64,000 nucleotides of DNA, from assembly GCA_036338695.1 (NCBI GenBank), contig JAYZBQ010000004.1, positions 1-64,000 of the forward strand, read 5' to 3'. The stretch is from Myxococcota bacterium (GTDB lineage Bacteria; Myxococcota; UBA4151). The notes beneath the pieces were generated by a model that searched no databases, was not told where the DNA came from, and worked only from the letters and a program-made list of their open reading frames with translations. How positions within the stretch are numbered: the first letter of the stretch is position 1; the number at the start of each line of letters is the position of its first letter. Shown one piece after another: positions 5,754-53,352 of this stretch. Both the position numbers and the translations under genes were made by a program.

Positions 5754-7061
5754 TTGCGTCGTTGGGTTCTCATCATGATCGGCGCCTGCTCGCTTGCGTG
5801 CGCCCAGGTGATCGAGGTCGAGAGCGTCGAGCGCTCAGGCGGCTACGGTGGCCCGTGCGTCGTCGGGTCGATCTGTGCCAACGGTCTGAGCTGCCAGTTT
5901 GGCTACTGCCCCCTGGTCGACGCGGGCACGGCTCCTGATGCCTCAAGCGGTGCAGCGGACGCAGCTCAGTTGCCCGAAGGGGTCTGCGGTGATGGGGTCT
6001 TGAACCGCGGTGAAGCCTGCGACGACGCAAACGACGCCCAAGACGATGCGTGCCTTTCTGACTGCACTCTGGCTCGCTGCGGTGATGGGGTGATTCGTCG
6101 TGATCTTGGTCCGCGTGATGAGGGGTACGAGATCTGCGACGATGGCAACGAGGTCGACGAGGATGCGTGTACCAGCGAGTGCGTCGTAGCCGTCTGCGGC
6201 GACGGCATCGTCCGAACCGATCTCGAGCCCGATGATCGAGCTTATGAAGCGTGCGATGACGGCAATTACGACTCGACCGACTCGTGCCTCGAGAGCTGCC
6301 GGTTCGCGCGTTGCGGCGACGGCTTTGTTCACGAGGGTGTGGAGGCCTGCGATCCGGGCGTGGAAGCTTTGGCTGCGTACTGCAGCGAGGACTGTGTCGT
6401 GCTTGGAGGCGTTCGCCTGGGCACAGGCGCTGAGGCTGAGGATCCGGCGTCGAACTGCCGCATCATCCAGTCGTTGGTGCCCGACGCGGCCGATGGTCTG
6501 TATTGGCTGGATACGGACGGCGATGGTGATGAGCCGGCGGCTCAGGTTCACTGCGACATGACGACGCAAGGAGGCGGCTGGACGCGCACGATGATGCTCC
6601 GCCGAGCTGATGCGCTCTGGGACGCGTGGATCACGCGCTCGGGTGACTCCGCTGCGGGTGTTTTGTACGGCTTACCCCTGCGAGACTTTGCCGCCGATGA
6701 GCGGGGGGAGTCGCTTGAGATCGTGTTCAAGGTCGATGGCGTCGCCCGACCCTTCGTTTATCGCGGTGTCCATTACAGTGCTTGGAACCCCGTGATGGGG
6801 CGTTCTCAGTACGACGACGCCTTTGAGTTGCGTCGCTTTGAAGACCAGGAATTTGCTCCTTGTACAGGGCGGTTTCGGCACGAAAACAGCAGCTGGAATT
6901 GGGCGATGGCGAGTGGCGGTGCGGGGTGTGGTGGTTACCGTACGACCGGATTTATTGTGCATGGATCGGGAAGCCAGCATGATCACGCTCATCAACTGTG
7001 GGGTCTCGGTGGATATGCTGCCACAACGACCTTTCAAACCATCGAGGTGCTGGTACGGTGA
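5754..7061 (+). CDS. Lipoprotein with 4 Myxococcus Cys-rich (DUF4215) repeats and a fibrinogen-like YCDxxxxGGGW domain
   Basis: Lipobox SLAC; CGDG..E.CDDGN repeats; ASNC..DGLYWL..HCDMTTQGGGW. Start uncertain (5733/5754/5775). Confidence 0.85.
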   Translation: MRRWVLIMIGACSLACAQVIEVESVERSGGYGGPCVVGSICANGLSCQFGYCPLVDAGTAPDASSGAADAAQLPEGVCGDGVLNRGEACDDANDAQDDACLSDCTLARCGDGVIRRDLGPRDEGYEICDDGNEVDEDACTSECVVAVCGDGIVRTDLEPDDRAYEACDDGNYDSTDSCLESCRFARCGDGFVHEGVEACDPGVEALAAYCSEDCVVLGGVRLGTGAEAEDPASNCRIIQSLVPDAADGLYWLDTDGDGDEPAAQVHCDMTTQGGGWTRTMMLRRADALWDAWITRSGDSAAGVLYGLPLRDFAADERGESLEIVFKVDGVARPFVYRGVHYSAWNPVMGRSQYDDAFELRRFEDQEFAPCTGRFRHENSSWNWAMASGGAGCGGYRTTGFIVHGSGSQHDHAHQLWGLGGYAATTTFQTIEVLVR

Positions 7062-9298
7062 AGCGACTTGTTCTGATCTTGGCTTTGCTCCCCTTCGCCG
7101 CCAGCGCGAGTGACGACGACATCTTCTTGCAAGGGATGGCGCCCGAGGTGGAAGAGAGTGAAAAAAAACCTGTCTTCGTTGTACCCCTGCAGCCTGTTTG
7201 GAACAGCGCAGACGCCAACCTGCTGCTCAAAGTGGGGAAGAACTTAGTCACCTTGATCGAAGAGGCTGGGCCCTGGAAGGTCGTCTTTTATGACGAGACC
7301 AAAGAGCTCAAAAAAGTGCAGGACCACGAAGCCCGGCTCCACAAAAAATGGCTTAAAGAGGTCGTCTACACCGAGGCGTTGCTCAAGCACCGGCGCGCCG
7401 GTCATGCCACGTCGGGCGCAGCGCGTGTGACCCGCCTGCAAAGTCAGAACGCAGGCTATCTGCGGACGCCGAATCTCTACTGCCGCAGCCTGATGATCGT
7501 CGCCGAGGGGCGCCTTTTTATGGGGCAAGTCGCCAAGGCGAAGAAGACGCTGCGCCGGCTCGCAGGGACCTGCGAGCGCGCGGACCTTGAGAAGAGCCGG
7601 TTGACGCCGACGAAGCGGTTCAAAGCCCTGCTTGAGGAGGCTCGGCAGGCGGCGGAGCGTGAAGCGAGCGGCGAGCTGACGGTGACAGTCGATGTGCCGG
7701 GGACGGACGTGTACCTAAACGGTCGGCGGCTTGGGCCGGCACCGCTGACGCTTAAAAAGATCCCAGCCGGCGAGCACCTCGTGGGCGTGTTTCGTGAGGG
7801 GTTTAAGCCTTGGGGTAAGAAGGTTCAGATCGATCCGGGCGAGACCGTGACGCTGCAAGCGACTGTGACCCGAGGCATGGGCGGACAGGATCAGCAGCGC
7901 ATGCTGTCGACGCTGCGTGACAACCGCGTCGACGCCAACGTGGCGCGGGTGGTCGGGCGCTTGTTCAAGCGCCACGGCAAGAAGGCCGTGATGGGGCTGT
8001 TTGGCGGCGTGGCGAAGCAGGGCAACCAGATCTGGGTGACGCTGTACGCTGTCGATAAGCGAGGCCGCGCCATTCGGCTCAAACAGATGAAGTTTGACCC
8101 AGACTTTTTGACGGCGCACCTGGCGCTGTCACCGGTCATGGAAGAGATCGGTGCGCTGGCAGAAGCCTTCCAAGGCTCCCTGCTGTCCCAAGCGATTTTG
8201 CTCGATGGCCTCGACGCCGTGGTGAGTAAGCCGCGTGTGCTGGGGTGGCGCGTGATGAAGGAGGAAGCGTCGGAGGCCGCGGGTGAGGTCGTCGCCCGAG
8301 GGCCGGTGCGGCGCGGTCCCGTGGGCCGAGGCGGTGCGCAAGCGGCGGTTGCGGCTGCGCCCGCAGCGCGCACTCGCCCCCCTGAGTCGGCGCCAGCATT
8401 TGCGAAGAAGTCGTCGAAGCAGGTGCCAACGACAAAGCCTGCAAAGCCAAAGGCGGCAGCCCCTAAAGCGCCCCCGACGCCGAGCCCTGAGGAGCTGGCT
8501 GCTGAGCTCGCCGCGCTCGACGCCGAGGAGGAGAGCCTCGCAGCGGAGATGGAGGCGCTCGCCGTCAAAGAGGCGTCGGAGGCGACCGGCCTCAGCGTTG
8601 AGCAGCTGCAACGGCGCGCCGAGCGCGACATGCGAATGCGTATTTGGGCTGCTATGGATCCGGATCACGTGCTCGAGTTCCAAGCCCTTGGGGCGCTCGG
8701 GTTGAGCAGCGCAAGCGGCGGCGCGCTTCAAGCGAGTTATCTTCGCCGGCAGCCGACGCCGATGCTCGGGGTTTGGGGTGCCTTTGGCGTGGAGGGCTTC
8801 GTCGGTCAGCTCGGAGCCGACTGGCAAGATCGTACCTATTTTGCGGCGATGGATAACCCGTTCAAGCAGAGCACACGCGACAACCCAGAGCTCAAAGAGC
8901 GGGTGCGCGTGATCCCGGGGAGCAGCCTCGGCCTGCGCGCCGTCGGGCGACTGGGTCTCGATTTAGGAGACGGTCGCCTGCGTCTTCTTGGGCAGGCGGG
9001 TCTCGGCTACGCCATGCACCGCTCCAGCCTGAAGCACGAGCAGTATACGATTGACTCCGAGGGCTTCGCCGTCGCCGGGAGCGGCGTCGCGATCCAAGAT
9101 TCGATCGTCTTCCCCTGGGCGGGGCCTGAGGTGAGCGGTTCAGTCGGGGCGGCTTACCGCCTTGTCGGGACCAGCTGGCGGTTGCTCGGCAAGGTGCAGT
9201 GGCAGCAGACGCTGCTGGGTAGTGTGCAGAGCTTTGTGACGGGTCAGGGCGCCCAGTCGACGCTCGGACTTGCGGTCGGGGTATCGGGAACTTTTTAG
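7058..9298 (+). CDS. Secreted PEGA-domain protein with Ala/Pro/Lys linker and probable C-terminal outer-membrane beta-barrel
   Basis: GTG overlaps the upstream TGA. Signal peptide; PEGA motif (GELTV..PGTDVYLNG..LG.APL..IPAGEH); alternating amphipathic strands ending GVSGTF. Confidence 0.8.
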   Translation: MKRLVLILALLPFAASASDDDIFLQGMAPEVEESEKKPVFVVPLQPVWNSADANLLLKVGKNLVTLIEEAGPWKVVFYDETKELKKVQDHEARLHKKWLKEVVYTEALLKHRRAGHATSGAARVTRLQSQNAGYLRTPNLYCRSLMIVAEGRLFMGQVAKAKKTLRRLAGTCERADLEKSRLTPTKRFKALLEEARQAAEREASGELTVTVDVPGTDVYLNGRRLGPAPLTLKKIPAGEHLVGVFREGFKPWGKKVQIDPGETVTLQATVTRGMGGQDQQRMLSTLRDNRVDANVARVVGRLFKRHGKKAVMGLFGGVAKQGNQIWVTLYAVDKRGRAIRLKQMKFDPDFLTAHLALSPVMEEIGALAEAFQGSLLSQAILLDGLDAVVSKPRVLGWRVMKEEASEAAGEVVARGPVRRGPVGRGGAQAAVAAAPAARTRPPESAPAFAKKSSKQVPTTKPAKPKAAAPKAPPTPSPEELAAELAALDAEEESLAAEMEALAVKEASEATGLSVEQLQRRAERDMRMRIWAAMDPDHVLEFQALGALGLSSASGGALQASYLRRQPTPMLGVWGAFGVEGFVGQLGADWQDRTYFAAMDNPFKQSTRDNPELKERVRVIPGSSLGLRAVGRLGLDLGDGRLRLLGQAGLGYAMHRSSLKHEQYTIDSEGFAVAGSGVAIQDSIVFPWAGPEVSGSVGAAYRLVGTSWRLLGKVQWQQTLLGSVQSFVTGQGAQSTLGLAVGVSGTF

Positions 9299-9372
9299 GC
9301 GGGTTGCTCCGAGTTTTGTCGGATGCGCTCAAGGAGGCGGTGTGGGCATGGTGTGCCCCCGAGGAGTCTCCG

Positions 9373-10755
9373 ATGAAAAACGCTGCGGTCGCGCTCGCGT
9401 CGTTGTTGGTCTTGTCGATGAGCTGTACCCCGACGCCTGAGGACTGGGGACAGGCTTCGAGCGCCTATGTGGAGCGTTGTGAGGGCGAGGCCTGCGCCCA
9501 AGGCAACGAGTGCGCAGGAGGATATTGCCTCAAGCCAGAAGACGCTGGCGACGACTACCGCCCTGGTCTTCGCTGCGGTGATGGGTTGGTACAGCGCTGG
9601 GAAGACTGCGATGATGGCAACGACATCAACACCGACAGCTGCCTGACCGGGTGCCGCGCTGCGCGCTGCGGCGACGGGTTTGTGCGCGCCCACCTCACGA
9701 GTCATGACCCGGAGTACGAAGCCTGCGATGATGGCAACCTCGATGACACCGATGGGTGCACCAGCGAGTGCCGTTTGGCGCGTTGCGGTGACGGTTTTGT
9801 GCGAGCGGATTTAGAGCCTGGCGAAGACGGCTATGAAGCCTGCGATGACGGCAATCGGTTCACGCGCGACGCGTGCGTTGACTGTGTCCCGGCGCGCTGC
9901 GGCGACGGGCTCGTTCACGACGGCGTCGAGACCTGCGATGACGGCAACGAGGAGCTCGACGATGGCTGCGTGGCGGACTGCCAGTCCGCGCGCTGCGGTG
10001 ACGGGCACGTACGCGCGGACGTCGAGCCCGGTGGTGTCGGTTACGAGCTCTGCGACGATGGCAACCAAGACCCCGAGGACGCGTGCGGAAACGACTGCTA
10101 CCCGAACGCTCTGCCGCAGGGGCTCGGGTCGGGACCAGACGATCTGGCGCACAGCTGCGGGCAGATCCTTGCGGCGAATCCTCAAGCGGGTGACGGGCTC
10201 TACTGGGTGGACGTAGACGGCGCTCGGCCGACCCCGCCTGCGCAGGTTCGTTGCGATATGCGGACGGATGGTGGCGGCTTTACGCGGATGATCTTGCTGC
10301 ACCAAGACCTGGCCCTTTGGAACGCTTGGACCGACGGACTGATCGGTCAACCCGAAGGCGATGACCCGTTCGGTATCCCGCTCAACTCGATGCAGAAGCC
10401 GTCTGCTGAGCTCGAGGTGTACTTCCGCCGTAACGGCGAGCGCGTGACCCCGATCCTAAGCGGGGTGTCGGCCTCGGTCTGGAACCCGATCGATCGGATT
10501 GAGGAAGCGGCAGGGGCGCTCATCTCGAGGGCGCCGGGCGCTGCGGCGAGCGAATGTTCAGAGCCGATCCTACGCGCAGCGGATCACTGGAACTGGAGCT
10601 TCGCCTCGGCCTCAGGCTGCGCAGCGCCAGGAGCTGGAGGCGTGGTGGTGTATGGCGATCCAGAGAATGACCTAGGCGACGCAGCGGTGCGGTTCCAAGG
10701 ACCGGCGATGGAGGCGGCGGAGCCGTTCGAGAGCCTGGAGGTTTGGGTTCGATGA
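9373..10755 (+). CDS. Lipoprotein with 5 DUF4215 repeats and a fibrinogen-like domain (paralog of 5754..7061)
   Basis: GAGGAG RBS; lipobox LSMSC; AHSC..DGLYWV..RCDMRTDGGGF; ends LEVWVR versus IEVLVR in the paralog. Confidence 0.85.
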   Translation: MKNAAVALASLLVLSMSCTPTPEDWGQASSAYVERCEGEACAQGNECAGGYCLKPEDAGDDYRPGLRCGDGLVQRWEDCDDGNDINTDSCLTGCRAARCGDGFVRAHLTSHDPEYEACDDGNLDDTDGCTSECRLARCGDGFVRADLEPGEDGYEACDDGNRFTRDACVDCVPARCGDGLVHDGVETCDDGNEELDDGCVADCQSARCGDGHVRADVEPGGVGYELCDDGNQDPEDACGNDCYPNALPQGLGSGPDDLAHSCGQILAANPQAGDGLYWVDVDGARPTPPAQVRCDMRTDGGGFTRMILLHQDLALWNAWTDGLIGQPEGDDPFGIPLNSMQKPSAELEVYFRRNGERVTPILSGVSASVWNPIDRIEEAAGALISRAPGAAASECSEPILRAADHWNWSFASASGCAAPGAGGVVVYGDPENDLGDAAVRFQGPAMEAAEPFESLEVWVR

Positions 10756-12533
10756 TGCTTCTGGCTGCAGCGTCGCTGCTTTTAGCAGATTTTCAGATGG
10801 GTCAATATGAGATGGCCGGAACCGCCAAGGACATCTCTTATCTGGGCTGGCATGGCGCGCCGACGAGCACCGAGCAGAGCACGGCGCTCACGAAGCTGCT
10901 CTCGCAGGCTGCGCGCACCGCAGGGCACAGGCTGCGCTCGGTGGCGCGTACGCAGCCAGCGGTTGATGACCTGGTTCAGCAGCAGGCGCTCGAGCTGGAG
11001 GTCTTGCTCGGGCTCGCAGGGCGTGCGGCTGAGCGAGCGCAGGGAGTCCTGCAGCTCCATCTTGGTCGACCCAGCCAGTTGTTGCGAAGCCATCAGCGCA
11101 GCTGTCGCTTATTTTACGCGGCGGCGGCCGCCTTTGAGCTCAACAGCCAAAAGCGTGCCGTCGACTTGATGCTCGGAGGGTTGGCGGGCTGCCGTGATGA
11201 CGGGCTCACCCACCTCGGCTGGTCGAGCGACTCGCTCGCAGCGCGCCTTAAAGGGATGCGGCAAGAGGGTGAGGCGACCCTGACGATTAAGGCGAGCGTT
11301 CCGGGTGCCCAGGCTTATCTCGACGGATTGTTTTTGGGCGCTCTGCCGGTCAAGGTGACCGGCATCCCAGCCGGTCGCCATCAGCTGCAGCTGGTGAGCG
11401 GGGCGGCGGGGCTGGCGATGGAGGTGGAGCTCAAGCCCGATCAGGTCGCACGCTTGGAGTTGACGGAGCCACAGCATGGACTCCCCGGTCTCTCCGATGG
11501 ACGACTCAGCGCCGCGGAGCTCAAAGCGCTCGCTAAAAACCTACCGCGCGGGGTTGGGCGCGGCTTGATCGTGCTCGGTAGCCGCTCGGGGTTATCGGCG
11601 CTGATCTTTAGCGCGAGCCAGGCGTTGGTCGTCCAAGGGCGCTCTGAGCAGGCGCTCGCCGCCGCCGTGCAGAACGGGTTGAAGTCGCTGCAGCCGCTGC
11701 CTCCAGGTGGGCTCGTCCTCAAAGGCGTTGCGGTCAGCGAGGGCGTCCCTGAGCGTAGCTTTGAGCGGATGCGACAGGCGGCCAGCCGCGATGAGCTCCC
11801 AGCGCCCACCGACGAGCTGGTGCGAGGGATGGTGAACTACGCAGCGCAAGCCACGGGGCGCTCAGCCTCGGAGCTGCGAGCGAAGGTTGAGCTGAGTCAA
11901 AAGCGCGGCGCGTGGCGAGCTCAGCGCGGGCATTGGTTGGTGCTTGGCGACCTCGAGCTGAGCAGCTCGAGCGCACTGGGTGTCGGCGGAGGTGTCTCGG
12001 CGCTGCGGCTGCAGCCGGCGACGACGTCGAGTCTGTGGTATGCGCTTGGCGTCCGCCTGCACGCAGGCGGCGCAGGGGCTTCCCCGAGCGGTGATGACTG
12101 GGACCCGATGCGCTATCCGATGGACCCGATCACTGCGACGGAGCCGACCTTAGAGGAGCGCATTCGTCTCGAGGGGGCAGGTCGCTTCGGCGTCGACGCG
12201 CTCGCAGGTGTCGGCTTCCAGCTCGGCAGCGATCTTCGGCTTCTGGCGCTGGCGGAGGGGGGCTGGCGCCAGGTCCAGGCCGACCTGGTCCATGAGCAGT
12301 ACGTCGTGGGTGAGGACGGCTCAACGAAAGAGCTGCGCCGAACGGGCGCGTTCCCATGGGGAGGGCGTCGTTTCGGCGCTCGGATGCTCGGCGTGTATGG
12401 TCTGGGTGCTTGGCAGGTCGGCGGCTCACTCGCCTGGTCGATGTCGCAGTTTCCAGCCGTTGAGCTCGACTTGGTGATCCCTGCCTCGAGCCAGAGCGTG
12501 CGGCTCGGTCTGGTTGTAGGCCGCCGCTTCTAG
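10752..12533 (+). CDS. PEGA-domain protein with probable C-terminal beta-barrel (paralog of 7058..9298)
   Basis: ATGA overlap; PEGA motif PGAQAYLDG..LG.LP..IPAGRH; shares L.ER.R, HEQY, FPW.G; ends GRRF. Confidence 0.8.
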   Translation: MMLLAAASLLLADFQMGQYEMAGTAKDISYLGWHGAPTSTEQSTALTKLLSQAARTAGHRLRSVARTQPAVDDLVQQQALELEVLLGLAGRAAERAQGVLQLHLGRPSQLLRSHQRSCRLFYAAAAAFELNSQKRAVDLMLGGLAGCRDDGLTHLGWSSDSLAARLKGMRQEGEATLTIKASVPGAQAYLDGLFLGALPVKVTGIPAGRHQLQLVSGAAGLAMEVELKPDQVARLELTEPQHGLPGLSDGRLSAAELKALAKNLPRGVGRGLIVLGSRSGLSALIFSASQALVVQGRSEQALAAAVQNGLKSLQPLPPGGLVLKGVAVSEGVPERSFERMRQAASRDELPAPTDELVRGMVNYAAQATGRSASELRAKVELSQKRGAWRAQRGHWLVLGDLELSSSSALGVGGGVSALRLQPATTSSLWYALGVRLHAGGAGASPSGDDWDPMRYPMDPITATEPTLEERIRLEGAGRFGVDALAGVGFQLGSDLRLLALAEGGWRQVQADLVHEQYVVGEDGSTKELRRTGAFPWGGRRFGARMLGVYGLGAWQVGGSLAWSMSQFPAVELDLVIPASSQSVRLGLVVGRRF

Positions 12534-12652: not shown

Positions 12653-13906
12653 ATGCGGAAATTGGGTCTGATCTTGGTGATGGTGGCATGCTCTGAGCCA
12701 ATCGCTGAACCGACGGGTTTTAGTGGCTTGGGCGCGCGCTGCGGTCCGACGCAGCCTTGCGCTGAAGGCCTGCGCTGCGCAGGCGGTTTGTGCTTAGCCG
12801 CCGTGCGCGATGGTGGCGCGGCTCTTGAGGACGTTGGCTCTTCGCCGATGGACGCCGGCGAGGCGACTGACACCGGGAGCAGCCCGGCACACGATGCAGG
12901 CGCCGAGCGGGTCGTTGGCGTGCAATGGGCGAGGCCTGATGGACGCGTGTCGATCGAGGAGGGGGAGCGACTCGACGCGGCGGTGGAGGTGTCGGGCGAT
13001 GATCTGAGCGGTTTGACGCTGCGCTGGAGCAGCTCGCTCGATGGGGTGATCGGCGACGATCAGATCCCGCCGACGGGGCGCGTCGTGCGCAGCATCTTGC
13101 TGCGTGAGCGGGGCGTGCATGAGCTGCGCGTTGAGGTGCTTGATGGGGAGCGCTCGCTCGCTGACGCCACGCGCCGGGTCGGCGTCTGTGGTTGGCAGGT
13201 GATCGGCGACTTCAACGCCGACCTTGAAGGCTGGCAACGCTTTGGCGACGCTCAGCGTGACCCGCGCGGTTGGCTCGAGCTGACGGGTAATGCGCGCGGC
13301 CGGAAGGGCGCAATTTACAAGGTCAGTGAGAGCATCGAGCCGGGCAATGTGCAGCTCGCGTTTCGCATCAGCACCGGGCAGTGTGATGAGCCCGGACCCT
13401 GTCAGTTTAACGCCAACAACGCGGCGGACGGTTTCGCGATGAACATTTGGGATGTGGAGTCGCCCGAGGCGCTCGCTGACTTGTTCGATGTGGCGTCGAC
13501 CGGCGGCGGCTTAGCCTATGGAGTAGGCGGCGCGTGGGGTGACTGGGTCGGCAACGCGTTCCATATCGAGTTTGACACCTGGTACAACCAGTTCAACGGT
13601 GGCAACGAGTTCCACACAGACCCTACGCGCCAGAACCACGTCGCCATCACCTTAGACGGTGACCCGGGTAACCACGTCGCGGTGGCGGAAACGCCGGCTA
13701 TTGAGGACAACGCGTGGCACGAGGTCGAACTCGTGATTCGTGGAGACCGGGTGCGCGTCGACCTGGACGGGCGCTCGGTGATCGATCAGCGCGTGGAGGG
13801 GCTCGACTTCAAAGGCGGCTATATCGGCTTTAGTGGCACGACCGGCTACTACACCAACTTTCACCGATTTGATGACCTGCGGACACGCCCGGCGTGTGAG
13901 CCTTAG
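12653..13906 (+). CDS. Lipoprotein with Ig-like segment and L-type (legume) lectin domain
   Basis: GGAGG RBS; lipobox MVAC; ADGFA, GGGLAY, IEFDTWYN, NHVAI, WHEV, GFSGTTG..H lectin motifs. Confidence 0.85.
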   Translation: MRKLGLILVMVACSEPIAEPTGFSGLGARCGPTQPCAEGLRCAGGLCLAAVRDGGAALEDVGSSPMDAGEATDTGSSPAHDAGAERVVGVQWARPDGRVSIEEGERLDAAVEVSGDDLSGLTLRWSSSLDGVIGDDQIPPTGRVVRSILLRERGVHELRVEVLDGERSLADATRRVGVCGWQVIGDFNADLEGWQRFGDAQRDPRGWLELTGNARGRKGAIYKVSESIEPGNVQLAFRISTGQCDEPGPCQFNANNAADGFAMNIWDVESPEALADLFDVASTGGGLAYGVGGAWGDWVGNAFHIEFDTWYNQFNGGNEFHTDPTRQNHVAITLDGDPGNHVAVAETPAIEDNAWHEVELVIRGDRVRVDLDGRSVIDQRVEGLDFKGGYIGFSGTTGYYTNFHRFDDLRTRPACEP

Positions 13907-14794
13907 CTAGGGCAGCACGCGCTCAAGCGCGGCGGCGTTCTTCACCCAGATCTCACCGTACGCCTTGGTGCGTCGGTCGCCGTTGTCACTCTGCCAGCGC
14001 CCGACCGCAAAGTTTCCGGTGATGACTTGGTCTCGATCGCTCCCGATCCCGATGAACGAGTCCGGCGTGTGGCAGTCGTTCTGCTCGTTGCCGAGGATCC
14101 CAAAGCGTAGACGGTGGCGAACGTTGATGCCCTCGGCGTTGCAGTTGGGTTGGAGCGAGGTCAGCGGGATCAGCGAGCGCCAGCGGTCGCGCCCGAGCTC
14201 CGTCAGGTGCTCGTCACCTCGTACCATCAGCTGGCGCATGCTCGACGCCTCATGACGGAGGGTGAGGTAGCGCGTGGTGCCATCGCCCTCCTCCGCGTCC
14301 TCGTCCACACGAAGACCGACGCGCAGGTCGGTGAAGGGGAGCTGCAGGTAGCCGGCATTTTTCATCTGACCGGGCCCTGGCGCGACCTCGTCTTCGTTCA
14401 AGAGCACGCTGTTGTACCAGATCGCCTCGTCGTATTTGAACGTCGTCTCATGACCGTCGACTTTCAGGATCAGCGTCCACGGTCCATCGTCCGCGTCGAG
14501 GTCGCAATAGGCGAGGAAGGCGTTGTCCGTTGAGCCGCCGACGGGGTTGAGCCAGTAGGCGTCGCTCGCAAGCTCGGGGTGTTCTTGAGCGAGGACCTCG
14601 CAGCTCAGCGCTGCGTCTTCCGGGCGCTCTCCGGCGCCTGGTAAGTGCACGACCGAGGCGTCGAGCGCAGCGGCTACGTCAGCCCCAACGCCTGTATCGA
14701 TCACGGAAGCCACAGGTCCGCTGGGGGGTTCGGCGGGCTCTTGGCAGGCGAGCGTCACGGCGGAGAGCAGTAAGCCGGTTGCGAAGCGTTTCAT
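13907..14794 (-). CDS. Fibrinogen-like (YCDxxxxG.W) lipoprotein
   Basis: Lipobox TLAC; ALSC..YWL..AYCDLDADDGPWTLILK; NCNAEGIN, RFGILGNEQNDCHTPDSFIGIG. Confidence 0.8.
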   Translation of the reverse strand: MKRFATGLLLSAVTLACQEPAEPPSGPVASVIDTGVGADVAAALDASVVHLPGAGERPEDAALSCEVLAQEHPELASDAYWLNPVGGSTDNAFLAYCDLDADDGPWTLILKVDGHETTFKYDEAIWYNSVLLNEDEVAPGPGQMKNAGYLQLPFTDLRVGLRVDEDAEEGDGTTRYLTLRHEASSMRQLMVRGDEHLTELGRDRWRSLIPLTSLQPNCNAEGINVRHRLRFGILGNEQNDCHTPDSFIGIGSDRDQVITGNFAVGRWQSDNGDRRTKAYGEIWVKNAAALERVLP

Positions 14795-20438: not shown

Positions 20439-23400
20439 ATGTTGCGATGTGTACCGTTGGTTTGCCTGCTTTTGGGGTGCTCACTGCGCGAGGCGCCGGC
20501 ACCAGCAACCCCTGTCTGCGGTAATGCGCTCGTTGAGCGCGGCGAGCGCTGTGATGACGGCAACACCAGCGACGACGACGGCTGCTCGAGCCGTTGCGCG
20601 CTGACCTATTGCGGCGACGGCCTCGTTCAGCCTTGGGAAGGTTGCGACGACGGGAACGCGGTGGATACGGACGGCTGCTCGAACGTCTGCCGTTCGGCTC
20701 AATGCGGTGACGGCATCGTCCAGAGCGACGAGGAGTGCGACCTCGGCGACGCCAACGGCGCCACCGCAGCCTGCTCGCCGCTCTGCCGCAACGCGGTCTG
20801 CGGGGACGGCTTTGTTCAAGAGGGTGAAGCCTGTGACGACGGAAACGCCGTCAACAACGACGCCTGCACGAACGCCTGCGCGCTGCCTCGCTGCGGTGAT
20901 GGGATCGTCCAGCCATGGGAAGCCTGCGATCCCGGTGAAGGCGCTGAGGATGCTGGCGCCGGGCAGTGCGTCAATTGTCGCGCAGCGCAGTGCGGCGATG
21001 GGGTCGTTCAAGGTGATGAAGAGTGTGATGACGGGAACGCAGCGAGCGACGACGAGTGCACCGTTTTGTGCCGTCGCCCGGTCTGCGGTGACGGCTTCGT
21101 ACAAGGCACTGAAGAGTGCGACGACGGCAACACCAACAATATGGACACCTGCACGAACGGCTGCACGGTCGCGGTCTGTGGTGACGGACACCGCTCGCCT
21201 TGGGAAGGCTGTGATGATGGCAACCGTGAGGGGGGCGACGGCTGCGACGCCAACTGCCGCAGCGAAGCGTGCGGTAACGGGCAGATCGACGGCGACGAAG
21301 CCTGCGATGACGGCAATGAGGTCGACACCGACGCCTGCACCAGCGCCTGCCAGATCGCTCGCTGCGGCGATAACTTTGTCTGGGAAGGGCGCGAGGAGTG
21401 TGACGACGGTAACGAGTCTGCGACGGACGCCTGCCTCAATACGTGCGTGATCGCGCGCTGTGGCGACGGCGTCCCGCGTGAGGACATCGCCGAAGGGCAG
21501 CCGGGTCATGAGGCCTGCGACGACGGCAATGGCTTTAACGGTGACGCCTGCACAGATCGGTGCGAGCGCGCGCGTTGCGGCGACGGTCACGTCGGTCCGG
21601 GCGAGTCATGCGATGACGGGGACAACGACGACGCCGACGCCTGCCGTAACGACTGCTCGGACGCCCGATGCGGTGATGGTCAGCGCCGCAACGACCTCGA
21701 GGCGGGTCAAGAGGGGTTCGAGGCGTGCGATGACGGCAATGAGGACGACGGCGACGCCTGCGTCGGTGCATGCCAGGTGGCGCGCTGCGGAGACAGTTTC
21801 GTTCAGCGTGGTGTCGAGGATTGCGATGACGGTAACCAGGTCCAGTCGGACGGCTGCCTCAACGACTGCACGGCGTCGCGTTGCGGCGACCAGATCGTCG
21901 GTCCCGGTGACGCGTGTGATGATGGTAACGAGCGCAACGACGACGGCTGTACCAACCGCTGCGCGTTGCCCGGTTGTGGAGACGGCTTCGTTCAAGACGG
22001 AGAAGAGTGTGACGACGGCAACGAGGTGAACACCGACGGCTGCCTGAACAGCTGCTTGAGCGCTGCCTGCGGTGATGGCGTGTTGCGCGGCGATTTGCAG
22101 GAGGGTGAGGGCGGCTTTGAAGCGTGCGATGACGGCAACCAAGTCGACACCGACGCCTGCACCAGCGGTTGTCTGGCGGCGCGCTGCGGTGACGGTTACG
22201 TGCGCGTCGGCGTGGAGGATTGTGATGACCGGAACCCCGCTGACGACGACGCCTGCACCAACGCGTGCCGCTTTGCGACCTGCGGTGACGGCGTGCGGCG
22301 TACGGACCTACCCGAGGACAACGAGGACTATGAAGCCTGCGACGATGGCAACCGCGATGAGCGCGACGCCTGCCGCTCCAACTGCATCGCCGCCGCTTGC
22401 GGTGACGGCATCCTGCGCAACGACCTGCAGGAGGGCGTGGATGGCTATGAAGCCTGTGATGACGGCAACATCATCCCCACGGACGGCTGCACGCACTTAT
22501 GCTTGGTCGCACGCTGCGGCGATGGGGTGATCCGTCAAGGGATCGAAGCCTGCGATGACGGCAACGAGGTCAACACTGACGGCTGCTTGAACACCTGCAG
22601 CGTTGCTCGCTGCGGTGACGGGGTGCTGCGAAACGACCTCGAGCTTGGTCAGCAGGGTCACGAAGCCTGCGATGATGGGAACCTCAACCAGCGAGACGCC
22701 TGCCTGAACCATTGTCAGGTGGCGATCTGCGGTGATGGCTACGTCCGGGGGGACGTCCCAGAGAATCACGAAGCGTACGAGGAGTGTGATGAGAACGACA
22801 ACTGCGTGGACTGCCGCCGCCCAGAGCCGAATGGAGGCGGTCAGGAGGATGCAGGGGTCATGGGGCTCGACAGCGGCATCAACGGGCGACCGGATGGGTT
22901 CTCTGAAGGGCCGCCCGAGGGGGGTCTCCCCGACCTCGGCTTCCCGGACCTGCCCGAGGCGGGCAATGACGCCGGACCGAGACCGGACATTGACAACCTG
23001 ATCCGAGACGCAGGTCCGCGGCCTGACCAGGGCCTGATCTTTGAGGCGGGCAATACGGACGTCTTTATCTTGATCGGCGATGCGCGCCCGCCGGGCTGGG
23101 ATGGTCCTGTCGGAGTCATCGACAGCGGTCCTCAGGACGTGCAGGGGAATCAGAGCCCGGATATTCCCGGTATACCCGACGCGAACATGCCTGAGGTTAA
23201 CCAGAATTTTGACATCGGGATGCAGCAGACCACGATCTGTGATCTGTGGAACTCGGGCATATTTCAGATCTGCACCAACTGTCACGGGAACTCAGGCGGT
23301 GTTCGAGTGGATCACACCTCGCCGCGTACGCTGCATGATAGCTTCGTTAACGTCGCTGGTAACTCAAACCTCGACCTCGTCTCGCCGCGTAACCCGCAAG

Positions 23401-23558
23401 GCTCTTATCTGTACGCCAAAATGCTGGGTGCGCAGAACTTCTATCCCGGTGGCGGGGGCGGGCGCATGCCTCAAGGTGGACCGTATTACAGCCAAGAAGA
23501 CCTTGCGCCTCTGCTGCGCTGGATTAACAGCGATAACCTCGCAGCGTGTCTGCCCTAG
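20439..23558 (+). CDS. Large lipoprotein: 23 DUF4215 Cys-rich repeats, Pro/Gly/Asp linker, C-terminal c-type cytochrome domain
   Basis: Lipobox LLGC; 23 CG[D/N]..C[D]xG units counted; CTNCH at 23271-23285 followed by SYLY and GGRMP. Confidence 0.88.
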   Translation: MLRCVPLVCLLLGCSLREAPAPATPVCGNALVERGERCDDGNTSDDDGCSSRCALTYCGDGLVQPWEGCDDGNAVDTDGCSNVCRSAQCGDGIVQSDEECDLGDANGATAACSPLCRNAVCGDGFVQEGEACDDGNAVNNDACTNACALPRCGDGIVQPWEACDPGEGAEDAGAGQCVNCRAAQCGDGVVQGDEECDDGNAASDDECTVLCRRPVCGDGFVQGTEECDDGNTNNMDTCTNGCTVAVCGDGHRSPWEGCDDGNREGGDGCDANCRSEACGNGQIDGDEACDDGNEVDTDACTSACQIARCGDNFVWEGREECDDGNESATDACLNTCVIARCGDGVPREDIAEGQPGHEACDDGNGFNGDACTDRCERARCGDGHVGPGESCDDGDNDDADACRNDCSDARCGDGQRRNDLEAGQEGFEACDDGNEDDGDACVGACQVARCGDSFVQRGVEDCDDGNQVQSDGCLNDCTASRCGDQIVGPGDACDDGNERNDDGCTNRCALPGCGDGFVQDGEECDDGNEVNTDGCLNSCLSAACGDGVLRGDLQEGEGGFEACDDGNQVDTDACTSGCLAARCGDGYVRVGVEDCDDRNPADDDACTNACRFATCGDGVRRTDLPEDNEDYEACDDGNRDERDACRSNCIAAACGDGILRNDLQEGVDGYEACDDGNIIPTDGCTHLCLVARCGDGVIRQGIEACDDGNEVNTDGCLNTCSVARCGDGVLRNDLELGQQGHEACDDGNLNQRDACLNHCQVAICGDGYVRGDVPENHEAYEECDENDNCVDCRRPEPNGGGQEDAGVMGLDSGINGRPDGFSEGPPEGGLPDLGFPDLPEAGNDAGPRPDIDNLIRDAGPRPDQGLIFEAGNTDVFILIGDARPPGWDGPVGVIDSGPQDVQGNQSPDIPGIPDANMPEVNQNFDIGMQQTTICDLWNSGIFQICTNCHGNSGGVRVDHTSPRTLHDSFVNVAGNSNLDLVSPRNPQGSYLYAKMLGAQNFYPGGGGGRMPQGGPYYSQEDLAPLLRWINSDNLAACLP
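20517..22815 (+). repeat. Intragenic tandem array of Myxococcus Cys-rich repeats (about 95-120 bp units)
   Basis: Recurring tgcgg[ct]ga[ct]gg and tgcga[ct]ga[ct]ggcaa motifs. Confidence 0.9.
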
Positions 23559-49670: not shown

Positions 49671-51533
49671 TCATCTGGATGATTTGGGATCCGTTGGCAA
49701 GATGGCGCAGCAGCGCGTGCCGCCCTCAGGCCGCCGCGTCACCTCCAGCCGTCCGCCTTGATCCGCCAGCACCTCCATCGCAAGAGCCAAACCCAAACCG
49801 GTTCCGGTCGGCCTGCCGTCGATGAACGCTTGCCCTAAGCGCTCAAGCACGGTCTCGGAGATCCCTGGTCCGTTGTCGTCGATCAAGAGGGTGACGGCGT
49901 CTTGCGCGACCTCAGCGTGAAGGTGGACCGAGCCGCTGCGCTCATCGACCGCCTGCAAGGCATTCTGGACCAGGTTGATGAGGACGCCACGCAGCCCGTC
50001 TGGGTCGATCCAAGCCGACAGGTCGTCATCGACCGCAAAGCTGAGGCGGTCATCGTTCAAGAAGCGAATCAGATCCCCGACGAGCGGAGCGAGCAGCGTG
50101 TCTTGGGGCTTGGGGTCAGGCAGGCGCGCCATCTGCAGATAGGCTTGCGTCACACGCTCAAGGCGCGCCGCCTCGGAGCGGATCTGATCGAGCCAGCCTT
50201 CCGGGTCGGATTGCTCAGGGAGATCGTCGCTGAGCATGCGCGCCGCCAAACCGATCGTGGACAACGGGTTGCGGACTTCGTGGACGACCTGGGCGGCGAG
50301 ACGACCGGTCGCCGCAAGCCGCTCGTGGCGACGCAGCGCCAGCTCCGCATCAAAGCGTCGTGTCACCTCTTCGATCACGAGGATGGCGCCTCGGATCGGG
50401 GGAGCCAGCCGGCTGCTGTCGCGGTCTTGCAAGCTGCTCAGGTGCACCGCCACGCGGCGCGCCTCGCCAAAACTGAGCTCGTTGGCATAGGTCCTGTCGG
50501 CGATCGAGAGCACCTCACCGAGCGCCCCTGGGTCGTCGATGAGCGGCGCCGCCGGGGTTTGGCTGAGCGCTTTGCCAAGGAAGGCGTCCGGGTTGGCGGC
50601 GAAGAGTCGGCGGCAGCTTTGGTTGATGCGCGTGACGCGCCCTTGGGGGTCGAGCACGACGAGCGCCTGTGGCACGCTCTCGATCAAGTTGACGATCTCG
50701 CTCTGCGCCTGCCGGAGGCGGCTGCGCTCGTCTTTGAGCGACTGCTCTCTGCCTTGGACCGTCTCCGCCATACGCTGGACGGCGCGCAGCGTGGCGCCGA
50801 CCTCGTCGTTACCCGCTTGAAGCTGGGGAACGGGCTGTCCCGCCTCGACACGCGCCACCGCTGATCGGAGGTGTTCGAGGCTGCGCAGCGGCGCAATTAA
50901 GGTCAGCGTTAAGATGAGCACGCCGATGGCGCCTAAGGCAGCTAAACCGATGAGCCACTGGACCTCGCGAGCGCCCGAGAGCGCCGCCTCGCGTGAGCGG
51001 GTTTTGATCTCGGCGCGCGCCAGCACGAGCACCAGCCGGAGCTCACGGTCGATGTCGACGAGCGCTTCGACAAAGTTTGAGCGTTCCGTCAGCGTGCTCA
51101 GGTCGTTCAGACGTTTGAGCGACAGGTCGAGGTGCCGGCGAGGGACAGATTGCCGGATATCGGGGCGGTTTTTGGCGAGGTCGCTCAGCGCGATCAGGGC
51201 GCGCCGTCTCGCCTCAAAGCTGCCGCGAAAGGTCTCGATCTCGTCGCTGAGGTCGCGCTCGGGATCGACCTGGTCGATGTAGGTGCGTGTCCCCGCAATG
51301 AGCGAGCGCAATTCACCGATCTCAGCCACCAGCGGGAGCAGCACGGCGCCGTTGACCTCGAGCGCTGTGGTCGTGTTGTGGATGCGAAACGCGGCGATAC
51401 CCGTTACAGTACCGGTGACCAAAATGAGGAGCGCGTAGGCGAGGACGAGTCGTCGAAGGATGCTGAACGATCGGCTGTTTGTCGGTCTATGTGCCAATTG
51501 ACCTGCCCTAGACTGCGTGATAGCGGCTCGCAC
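49671..51533 (-). CDS. Membrane sensor histidine kinase (HAMP-PAS-HisKA-HATPase)
   Basis: 2 TM; NDEVG; H-box VHEVRNPL; N-box NLVQNA; DNGPG; GTGLGL. Start uncertain. Confidence 0.9.
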   Translation of the reverse strand: MRAAITQSRAGQLAHRPTNSRSFSILRRLVLAYALLILVTGTVTGIAAFRIHNTTTALEVNGAVLLPLVAEIGELRSLIAGTRTYIDQVDPERDLSDEIETFRGSFEARRRALIALSDLAKNRPDIRQSVPRRHLDLSLKRLNDLSTLTERSNFVEALVDIDRELRLVLVLARAEIKTRSREAALSGAREVQWLIGLAALGAIGVLILTLTLIAPLRSLEHLRSAVARVEAGQPVPQLQAGNDEVGATLRAVQRMAETVQGREQSLKDERSRLRQAQSEIVNLIESVPQALVVLDPQGRVTRINQSCRRLFAANPDAFLGKALSQTPAAPLIDDPGALGEVLSIADRTYANELSFGEARRVAVHLSSLQDRDSSRLAPPIRGAILVIEEVTRRFDAELALRRHERLAATGRLAAQVVHEVRNPLSTIGLAARMLSDDLPEQSDPEGWLDQIRSEAARLERVTQAYLQMARLPDPKPQDTLLAPLVGDLIRFLNDDRLSFAVDDDLSAWIDPDGLRGVLINLVQNALQAVDERSGSVHLHAEVAQDAVTLLIDDNGPGISETVLERLGQAFIDGRPTGTGLGLALAMEVLADQGGRLEVTRRPEGGTRCCAILPTDPKSSR

Positions 51534-51591
51534 CCTTGAGCCGTATACCCATTCCCCACCCTCGGGGAAAGGTCACTTGAACGGAGCTTTT

Positions 51592-53352
51592 GTGATTCGT
51601 AAATGTCTGATTTTTGCTCTGGTCGCAGGGCTGATCCCGAGCGCAGCGAGCGCCGAGGATGACGACTTTTTGTCGGACGCCGTGGTGGAGTCAGAAGAGG
51701 AAAAGAAGCCGAAAAAGCCACTCTTTTTGATCCCACTGCAGCCGGTCTGGAAGACGATTGAGCCTGCAAAAATTGATGATGCGGTCAAGAACATCGCGTC
51801 GGAGCTAGGCGACTCGGCGGGCTTTGCGGTCGAGCAGTACAACCCGCGCCTAGGGAGCGCGCGGTTCGATGACCCTGAGCCGCGGCTCAAGAAGCGCTGG
51901 GAGAAAGAGATCCGGGTCGCTGAGAACAACACGCGCAAGCGTCGCTTCTCGCAGGCGATCAAGAGCGCAGGGCGGGTCGTGCGGCAGGTCATGCAGAACC
52001 CTGAGCATCTCCGCGATGCGCGGCTCTACTGCCGCTCGATGATCCTCGTCGCCGAAGGCGAGCTGCGCCGGGGGCGGCGCAACAAAACCATGAGCATCCT
52101 CGACATCGTCGCCTCGTCCTGCGCCGAGCTGTTTGATGGCAAGGGCGCAGCTGAGCTCTCGGACGCCTTTAGCGATCTGCTCGCCGACGCGGTCGCCGAG
52201 GTGCGCCGTCGCAGCGCCGGCTCCTTGGTGGTGCAAGCGGATGAGCCCGGCGCCACCGTTTTTCTCAACGGGGTCTCTCTGGGGCCGGCGCCGCTGATCA
52301 TCCGGAACCTACCGCCCGCCAAGCACCTGCTGGCGGTCGTCAAGGCGGGCCATAAGCCGTTTGGCAAGGTGGTCAAGGTGGGTAGCGATGAGGTCCGCGT
52401 TCAGGCTCGTTTGACCAAGCCCTTAGGGGGAGGAAAGACCGGGCGTATCTTTACGGAGATGCGCGACAACCGAGTCAGCCCCGACGCCATTTCGCTGGCG
52501 GCTGAGCTGCTCCGAAAGCACGGCGGGAAATCCACTGTGGCGCTGCTCGGTGGCATCGCCAAGGTGGACGCGGTGATCAAGGTGAGCATGATCGCCGTGG
52601 ATCGCAAAGGTCAGGCGGTTCGCCTTAAGTCGATGAGCATCGACGAAGACTTTCTGGGGCTTGCGCCGGAGATGCTCGGCTTCAACGAGAAGCTGATCAA
52701 GCTTGCGGCGTCGTTTGTCGGTGGAAAATTCAAGGGTGGTACGCTGATCGAGGGGCTCAAGGCGCCGCAGCAAGAGGCTCAACCGGTCAAGTGGGCAAGC
52801 CTGGCGCTCGGTGGGAAGCGCAAGAGCCTGGCGCAACAGGGTAACGCGCGCGGACCGCTCAAGCGCGGCGAGCGGGCGAAGCCTCGGCGCCGCGCCGAGA
52901 AGCCCAAAATGAACCTCGAGGGTGCTTCGGAGCGCTCGAACCGGCGCGACCGAGAGGACGCCACCGAGCGGCGCGAGGAGCGCGTGGACAGGCGCCGGGC
53001 GGAGCGCGCCAGCCGGCGCGCCGATCGGGGCGCTAAGGATCCTGCGCCGCGCCCGCGGCGGCGAGCCTCGAGCGCGCGTAGCGACGATGAGAAGCCTCGG
53101 ACCCGCAAACGCCGTGATCGGTCCCGCTCGAGGGGGCGCACTCAGGCGAGGGCGCAGATTGATGAATGGGGTGTGAGCAGCAAGCCACGCCGCTTGCGCA
53201 AGCGCACGCGCAGTCAGGTCAACTGGCCGCTGATTACCGGCGCTTCGCTGGTGGGCGCGGGGGTGATCGGTGGCGGTGTTGCCCTCTGGTACAGCCTGGC
53301 TGCCACCCCGTCTGCGGTCAACGCCTCGGTGACATGGAGTACCCCCGAATGA
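51592..53352 (+). CDS. Secreted PEGA-domain protein with Arg-rich linker and C-terminal hydrophobic helix
   Basis: GGAG then GTG; signal peptide; PLQPVW, LYCRS, PEGA and RDNRV shared with 7058..9298. Confidence 0.82.
   Translation: MIRKCLIFALVAGLIPSAASAEDDDFLSDAVVESEEEKKPKKPLFLIPLQPVWKTIEPAKIDDAVKNIASELGDSAGFAVEQYNPRLGSARFDDPEPRLKKRWEKEIRVAENNTRKRRFSQAIKSAGRVVRQVMQNPEHLRDARLYCRSMILVAEGELRRGRRNKTMSILDIVASSCAELFDGKGAAELSDAFSDLLADAVAEVRRRSAGSLVVQADEPGATVFLNGVSLGPAPLIIRNLPPAKHLLAVVKAGHKPFGKVVKVGSDEVRVQARLTKPLGGGKTGRIFTEMRDNRVSPDAISLAAELLRKHGGKSTVALLGGIAKVDAVIKVSMIAVDRKGQAVRLKSMSIDEDFLGLAPEMLGFNEKLIKLAASFVGGKFKGGTLIEGLKAPQQEAQPVKWASLALGGKRKSLAQQGNARGPLKRGERAKPRRRAEKPKMNLEGASERSNRRDREDATERREERVDRRRAERASRRADRGAKDPAPRPRRRASSARSDDEKPRTRKRRDRSRSRGRTQARAQIDEWGVSSKPRRLRKRTRSQVNWPLITGASLVGAGVIGGGVALWYSLAATPSAVNASVTWSTPE

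Follow-up and report, generated by a model that had tools for sequence, protein, structure and literature searches.

A tandemly duplicated lipoprotein and adaptor-barrel gene pair, a candidate outer-membrane display unit in a Myxococcota bacterium

Do two genes that overlap by four bases, and that occur twice in a row, encode the two halves of one surface device? The question is raised by the first 64,000 nucleotides of contig JAYZBQ010000004.1 of a Myxococcota bacterium (assembly GCA_036338695.1; this whole stretch is called the window), where four co-directional open reading frames lie on the forward strand in the order A1, B1, A2, B2. A1 and A2 are lipoproteins with a cysteine-rich stalk and a fibrinogen-like tip; B1 and B2 are exported proteins joining a presumably periplasmic adaptor module to a predicted outer-membrane beta barrel. 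The reading favored here, held with moderate confidence on a structural model and on analogy with the lipoprotein CglB, is that each A–B pair is an outer-membrane display unit in which B would serve as the surface platform for A. The predicted barrel of B, the conservation of the gene pair in related genomes, a tether motif particular to barrel-adjacent lipoproteins, and a natural tip allele bear on this reading.

The duplicated gene pair

The preliminary description of this DNA had reported a repeated two-gene module of a Cys-stalk, fibrinogen-tip lipoprotein and a PEGA/beta-barrel partner, and what it read directly from the sequence is borne out. The stop/start overlaps are GTGA at 7058–7061 (A1/B1) and ATGA at 10752–10755 (A2/B2), and both partners end in phenylalanine. 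The two tips are homologous and strongly diverged, with 34% identity and the corresponding motifs WDAW/WNAW, SAWNP/SVWNP and WNWA/WNWS. Overall A1 and A2 are 38% identical (58% in the stalk), and B1 and B2 share 32% identity in the barrel and 30% in the PEGA domain. Both lipoproteins have above-cut-off matches to TIGR02232/DUF4215 repeats and to the fibrinogen-like motif NF040941, the latter covering only the first ~65 of the 211 tip residues; in the profile scans of B1 and B2, PEGA is the sole domain match. Lipoboxes and signal peptides of the four proteins were called by eye, and the signal peptide of B2 is short, with no basic start. The features are as follows.

5754..7061, +: A1, lipoprotein of 435 residues (tether, 4-Cys knot, TIGR02232 stalk, fibrinogen-like tip); Cys16 at 5799; lipobox by eye
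5799..5909, +: A1 N-terminal segment holding the tether, whose Tyr31 precedes the knot by four residues, and the 4-Cys knot (alignment); candidate docking segment
5982..6398, +: A1 Cys-rich acidic stalk, 4 repeats (TIGR02232, DUF4215)
6426..7058, +: A1 tip, with the NF040941 profile match at 6453–6584
6720..7031, +: A1 distal tip segment, residues 323–426, replaced in a second same-species allele (comparison with P0031)
7058..9298, +: B1, exported adaptor-barrel protein of 746 residues, overlapping A1 by GTGA (AlphaFold2 model)
7166..8245, +: B1 predicted periplasmic module, a split alpha/beta domain with inserted TPR-like helices (7325–7660), and PEGA (7670–7867) (AlphaFold2, Pfam)
8282..8653, +: B1 disordered Pro/Ala/Lys linker, with a predicted local distance difference test score (pLDDT) <50 for model residues 392–453, then two helices (460–515)
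8663..9295, +: B1 predicted barrel of the 8-stranded OmpA/NspA type, ending in Phe, its two long loops conserved (AlphaFold2, Foldseek, VIA, Atlas)
9373..10755, +: A2, paralogous lipoprotein of 460 residues; Cys18 at 9424, Tyr32, knot 9478–9528, 5-repeat stalk 9574–10107, tip 10108–10752
10752..12533, +: B2, paralogous adaptor-barrel protein of 593 residues, overlapping A2 by ATGA; PEGA 11274–11465, barrel ~11907–12530 by homology to B1
12653..13906, +: C, third co-directional lipoprotein, with a 4-Cys knot and an L-type lectin-like domain (PF18483, E 1.3e-10, below cut-off)

The lipoprotein C lacks the tyrosine of the tether and is a possible member of the same operon; it occupies the corresponding position in the related genomes G001 and G003 and at locus L111. 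A promoter and terminator scan of the locus returned chance level only. Half or more of the locus is present in six sequencing runs from three studies, five with a marine or seawater label and one unlabelled, and no RNA run is among the listed runs that contain it. TIGR02232 repeats, MYXO-CTERM matches, Atlas neighbors and a glt-like cluster recognized by eye all point to Myxococcota as the host phylum.

Predicted fold and origin of the barrel partner

The AlphaFold2 model of B1, built on a 46-row alignment, has a mean pLDDT of 84.8 and ends in eight long strands. Foldseek relates this C-terminal barrel to OmpA (E 5.9e-6), and also to NspA and Ail; VIA aligns it to NspA with a Z of 16.9 and a root-mean-square deviation of 2.9 over 147 residues; and structure comparison likens its strands to those of OmpA, NspA, PagL, OprF and OmpW. 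Atlas's own model of the barrel has a TM score of 0.73 to OMP_b-brl. The B2 barrel aligns to that of B1 strand for strand and is assigned by homology alone. The proposal that the partners end in an outer-membrane barrel is supported by prediction for B1. Pfam gives no PF13505 sequence match in B1 or B2, and a missing profile match is compatible with the fold; the barrel profile found nothing significant among PDB sequences. A single-sequence fold of the B1 C-terminus (pLDDT 34) was discarded.

The preliminary description named PEGA and the barrel, and overlooked the TPR and alpha/beta domains, which make up half of B. The TPR-like helices of B1 match TPR structures at Z 10–11.6. The strand-helix order of the split alpha/beta domain fits FlgO/CsgG/TolB_N, and one of 46 members matches TolB_N (E 0.043); hhalign of this domain against the FlgO/DUF3280-like adaptors of the window's genome (G000; 3.36 Mb, 99 contigs) was not significant. 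In the OmpA topology the long loops point outward and the N-terminal half lies toward the periplasm. Residues in the two long loops of the B barrel recur in nearly every one of the 18–19 barrel rows, and some are invariant across both paralogues. A barrel of eight strands is too narrow for an export pore, and the translocon barrel of Slam, or type XI secretion, has 14 strands; B as a Slam translocon was rejected, the B1 model having eight.

The two halves of B differ in distribution. With at most seven candidates scored per genome, the barrel profile was positive in all six genomes of the bacterial family and gave one marginal match (E 4.8e-4) in 395 others, and a survey of 1.84 billion representatives returned 17 matches. 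One of the 17, P0017 (3635 residues, 24 short stretches), was set aside without inspection as a repeat artefact. P0022 is a divergent barrel protein whose gene context was not found. Of 201 genomes from the phylum, 110 were positive for the N-half profile, a tally that includes the unpublished genome G195, from which no other result is drawn. Among 24 N-half loci from other families, 14 encode a hydrophobic C-terminal helix (13 with a terminal strand visible) and 10 an acidic tail, and none encodes a barrel. Because the N-half is phylum-wide and the barrel was found in one family, B would most simply be a family-specific fusion of a widespread phylum adaptor to a barrel. G000 has each non-barrel class once, a helix-anchored paralogue at 51517–53352 of the window and a second on contig C98. 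The former lies within 49671–55310, divergent from a sensor histidine kinase gene on the reverse strand and followed by a Kelch lipoprotein gene.

Pairing, tether and tip variation

The full array A1-B1-A2-B2-C with matching flanks is found in G001 and at L111, and G003 has B1-A2-B2-C on a contig cut within B1. A second genus carries a lone A–B pair that overlaps by one base and lies elsewhere on the chromosome, between a glycosyltransferase gene and a convergent gene (in G004 the convergent gene follows B). Over the six genomes, an A gene immediately precedes eight of nine assessable B genes with an overlapping start. The pair is conserved in two genera of one family, and not across the Myxococcota.

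The lipoproteins next to a barrel also share a feature of their own. All eight have a tether of 18–19 residues with a tyrosine four residues before the 4-Cys knot (Tyr-x3-Cys). In the 13 other tip lipoproteins with a detected knot a different residue takes the position of this tyrosine (8 more have no detected knot or are cut), and only two of 40 knot lipoproteins across G000 have the tyrosine, namely A1 and A2. A tree of the tips requires two changes for barrel adjacency, and one origin is compatible with it.

The tips have NF040941 scores of 63 and 59 bits in A1 and A2 (cut-off 30). Their N-terminal subdomain, marked by YCDM...GGGW, matches intelectin-1 (E 1.8e-5), and Atlas features agree. 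In fibrinogen domains the distal part carries the calcium and glycan binding site, and this is the part that is exchanged in a second A1 allele, P0031. The 90% cluster of A1, a level at which more divergent alleles are invisible, has 13 members with two tip types (9 versus 3, one being too short). P0031, present on three contigs of which the longest is 3.73 Mb, differs from the window at 39 of 104 residues in 323–426 and at 7 of 324 outside; it differs nowhere in 185–322, and identity drops from 100% in 216–322 to 62% in 323–426. A scan gave a z of 10.0, and 60 permutations reached no higher than 5.7. Since A2, B2, C and a further protein, D, on a contig of the P0031-bearing length differ from the window by only 3–10 residues, P0031 comes from the same species. 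Its segment is about as far from the window allele as that of other species (58–68%) and many of its changes are also found in G001, so on sequence comparison the segment is a homologous allele, not a frameshift. P0036 and P0040 carry the N-terminal haplotype of P0031 with the frame broken at the start of the segment; these breaks are probably assembly errors. The assembly of run X3 forks near the start of the segment: a contig with a depth of 12.3 stops at 6734 and the window allele goes on at depth 6.2, which fits two alleles and is a weak hint of them. In runs X13 and X5 contig cover is interrupted over the segment, an observation not counted as proof.

No comparable swapped allele was found in ten other clusters, where the 90% level would likewise conceal more divergent ones, and none for the tip of A2 among its 14 other listed members. 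Variable sites of A2 nevertheless fall in the distal tip more often than expected (8 of 17, expected 4.0, p 0.03), as do those of G001 A2 (7 of 12, expected 2.8, p 0.01); control proteins show no such enrichment (2 of 20, 2 of 14 and 2 of 18). Pooled without the swapped allele, distal sites number 29 of 79 (expected 19.2, p 0.009). The idea that tips diverge faster than stalks between species fits A2, modestly (50–63% versus 62–80% identity), and fails for A1 (66% versus 69%) and for the second genus (77% versus 70%). Two very different tip versions within one species are what would be expected of a recognition receptor.

Taken together, these observations suggest the following mechanism. B would sit in the outer membrane through its narrow, predicted 8-stranded barrel and likely hold A on the cell surface, acting as a platform rather than an export pore, because eight strands are too narrow for export. 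A, presumably lipidated, would dock through its tether and knot on the two long conserved barrel loops, as modelled for CglB on GltAB, and its disulfide stalk would lift the fibrinogen-like tip, the likely binding targets of which are glycans on the surfaces of prey, particles or other cells. The TPR/PEGA module would face the periplasm and link the unit to an inner partner, and recombination may diversify the tips and so alter specificity. A bolder version, which we regard as doubtful, is a programmable modular surface receptor: a one-chain barrel-adaptor that recognizes the tether, displays the lipoprotein and couples its bound state to the periplasm, with the binding half of the tip exchanged by recombination between lineages. 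If this were true, marine predators of the family would carry allele-variable receptors of an innate-immune type for prey or self.

Several observations weigh against a dedicated display unit. A 4-bp overlap alone is weak evidence of pairing, because 571 of 1669 (34%) close co-directional gene pairs of G000, from our own gene caller, permit one. G002 keeps B1 (N-half 71% identical) with a divergent lyase gene ~200 bases upstream, and an A1 orthologue was not found in this 85% complete genome. The tip does not need a barrel, because most tip loci lack one: a barrel adjoins two of four tip genes in G000 and six of 25 tip loci in relatives, where another eight are preceded by a small adaptor ending in a hydrophobic hairpin and the remaining 11 either are truncated or show neither neighbor. 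Nearly all of the ~102 Cys-stalk genes of G000 are without a barrel neighbor, and the phylum-wide N-half relatives lie upstream, not downstream, of their lipoprotein. The eight tether-bearing lipoproteins group into three clades, so they are not independent and the motif may stem from shared descent. As for the tip, sequence matches end at residue 74, leaving ~140 of 211 residues, the putative ligand-binding part, without one; the distal window used for counting variable sites was chosen from the A1 swap itself; and G001 A1 shows no enrichment in it (11 of 43, expected 10.6, p 0.5). The lone B1 of G002, the majority of tip genes without a barrel, the commonness of overlaps in G000 and a pairing seen in only six related genomes would all suit envelope genes that are transcribed together and whose products form no one-to-one complex of their own. 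A1 and A2, as two among roughly a hundred Cys-stalk lipoproteins, would then use a general route to their location, and B would act on its own in the outer membrane, its neighborhood having been inherited and duplicated. This explanation seems unlikely, given that the minimal A–B unit is kept in a second genus at another chromosomal site, that the duplication occurred as a pair, and that the tether motif is restricted to barrel-adjacent lipoproteins.

Three further explanations assign B or the pair a different task. As a signal relay across the outer membrane, B would hand tip binding on from barrel to linker, then to its periplasmic TPR/PEGA module and finally to an inner-membrane kinase or sensor encoded elsewhere. 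The breadth of the N-half family in the phylum, the sensor-kinase and Kelch-lipoprotein genes flanking the window paralogue, and the stronger conservation within the genus of the B1 N-half (79–93%) than of the barrel (54–82%) speak for a relay; yet no kinase or regulator lies at the locus in G000, G001, G003, G004 or L111, a disordered linker of 60 residues separates barrel and module, and the N-half of B2 is reduced and diverged relative to that of B1, which together make it quite improbable. It is less probable still that each B serves the lipoprotein downstream (B1 with A2, B2 with the lectin C) and that A1 is an accessory, replaceable passenger. Lipoproteins do follow 11 of the 14 helix-anchored B relatives and 11 of 21 hairpin-adaptor matches in G000, the order in G002 is B1-A2-B2, and C is syntenic in G001, G003 and L111; against this, B in G004 comes after A and before a convergent gene, gaps of 74 and 119 bases part B1 from A2 and B2 from C whereas A and B overlap, and C lacks the tether tyrosine. 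We give least weight to a functional equivalent of TraAB, in which tips would bind identical sibling tips and the barrel partner would drive outer-membrane exchange. The Cys-rich stalk, distal variable domain and barrel partner resemble that system, as do two A1 tip alleles within one species, but A–B has no MYXO-CTERM, TraA-type repeat or OmpA cell-wall domain, the last being needed for exchange according to the accessible part of PMC12045341; among the listed cluster members A1 shows just two alleles and A2 no comparable one; and a separate TraB-like gene exists on contig C78. The display unit, with B as platform for A, is the reading retained below.

Other stalk, tip and adaptor genes surround these pairs. 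G000 has 20 NF040941 matches, and its TIGR02232-type stalk genes encode up to 62 repeats per protein, many with a common N-terminus and varied C-terminal tips (one lies at 20439–23558 of the window). Next to C, at 13907–14794 on the reverse strand, a convergent lipoprotein has the same fibrinogen-like motif with another distal part and is syntenic in G001, G003 and L111. A few kb upstream of the G001 array, and absent there in the window, is a 1052-residue lipoprotein with three fibrinogen-like domains (G001:C135:17778–21386, L018). The small exported adaptors of G000, with weak FlgO/DUF3280 matches, a conserved Cys pair and a C-terminal hydrophobic hairpin, lie on contigs C6, C9, C10, C17, C18, C25, C28, C58, C66, C89 and C98 (L096–L105 in part); this family, of which 11 of 21 matches directly precede a lipoprotein, is possibly a second display or sorting system.

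Comparison with known systems

In the literature searched, with subscription papers and supplements outside the search, no description of the module was found, as the preliminary description had supposed in calling it undescribed. It had also called the pair analogous, not homologous, to TraAB, and the comparison agrees. As far as the accessible text of PMC12045341 goes, TraA/TraB is likewise a two-gene unit with a Cys-rich stalk and a barrel partner, and its distal domain is polymorphic, a trait to which the two A1 tip types may correspond. The domain order is reversed: A has an N-terminal anchor and its stalk before a C-terminal tip, whereas TraA has an N-terminal variable domain and MYXO-CTERM, and the Cys repeat families differ. 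The barrel of B is C-terminal, with no TSP3 or OmpA cell-wall domain, unlike TraB with its N-terminal barrel, TSP3 and C-terminal OmpA domain. TIGR03901 (MYXO-CTERM) is absent in A1 and A2, with four matches elsewhere in the genome, and none of the genome's eight PF00691 matches falls within B1 or B2. A TraB-like gene with a barrel-like N-terminus and an OmpA domain stands at G000:C78:20448–24433, after a gene whose product has Asp-rich repeats and matches MYXO-CTERM. From 55406 of the window to beyond its end at 64000 runs the gene of a 4314-residue exported protein with many repeats, two OmpA-like matches and a barrel-like C-terminus.

Individual parts have other relatives. With the 8-stranded barrels of OmpA, NspA, Ail and OmpW, B has the predicted fold and terminal Phe in common; beyond them it has a large N-terminal periplasmic module, two long family-specific loops and no Pfam sequence match. 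The phylum-wide TPR-PEGA adaptors have an N-half (split alpha/beta, TPR, PEGA) homologous to that of B and an adjacent lipoprotein, but have a hydrophobic helix or an acidic tail at the C-terminus and the lipoprotein downstream, whereas B ends in a barrel with the lipoprotein upstream. Only the N-terminal tip subdomain resembles the fibrinogen-related lectins intelectin and ficolin; the other 140 tip residues have no sequence match. The TIGR02232-type stalk repeat is shared by a protein of diatom adhesive trails, according to the accessible part of 10.1101/2023.03.06.531300, and 10.64898/2026.06.07.730663, as far as it is accessible, deals with a different repeat.

The pairs bear on the question, current even for CglB, of how myxobacteria-like cells keep lipoproteins at their surface. 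With its candidate docking motif and its two naturally occurring paralogous copies, the two-gene unit makes cognate versus non-cognate display directly testable in a laboratory host, and the pair of natural A1 tip alleles allows ligands of bacterial fibrinogen-like domains, on which no study was found in the literature searched, to be compared cleanly. The reach of such work is limited, the barrel family having been found in one family of uncultured marine bacteria.

The closest likeness is to CglB of Myxococcus xanthus. The GltABH barrels recruit and retain this lipoprotein without exporting it, according to the accessible part of PMC9946355, and the corresponding part of PMC11761067 models an N-terminal strand of CglB inserting between barrel hairpins. 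By the same partial sources, CglB on GltA/GltB/GltH with GltK and GltC combines, like A–B, an adhesive-tip outer-membrane lipoprotein, small barrels as a retention platform and a periplasmic TPR component. The A–B pair differs in having one barrel with a fused TPR/PEGA module; the analogy is one of parts. Its tip is fibrinogen-like on a TIGR02232 stalk, whereas CglB is a VWA domain on a propeller (profile scans found no VWA match in A1 or A2), and unlike CglB/Glt it has no link to a gliding motor. A glt-like outer-membrane cluster, recognized by eye as two barrel genes followed by TPR genes, is present at G000:C85:45831–52659. On this comparison A–B would be a lineage-specific variant of barrel-plus-lipoprotein display, built from other parts.

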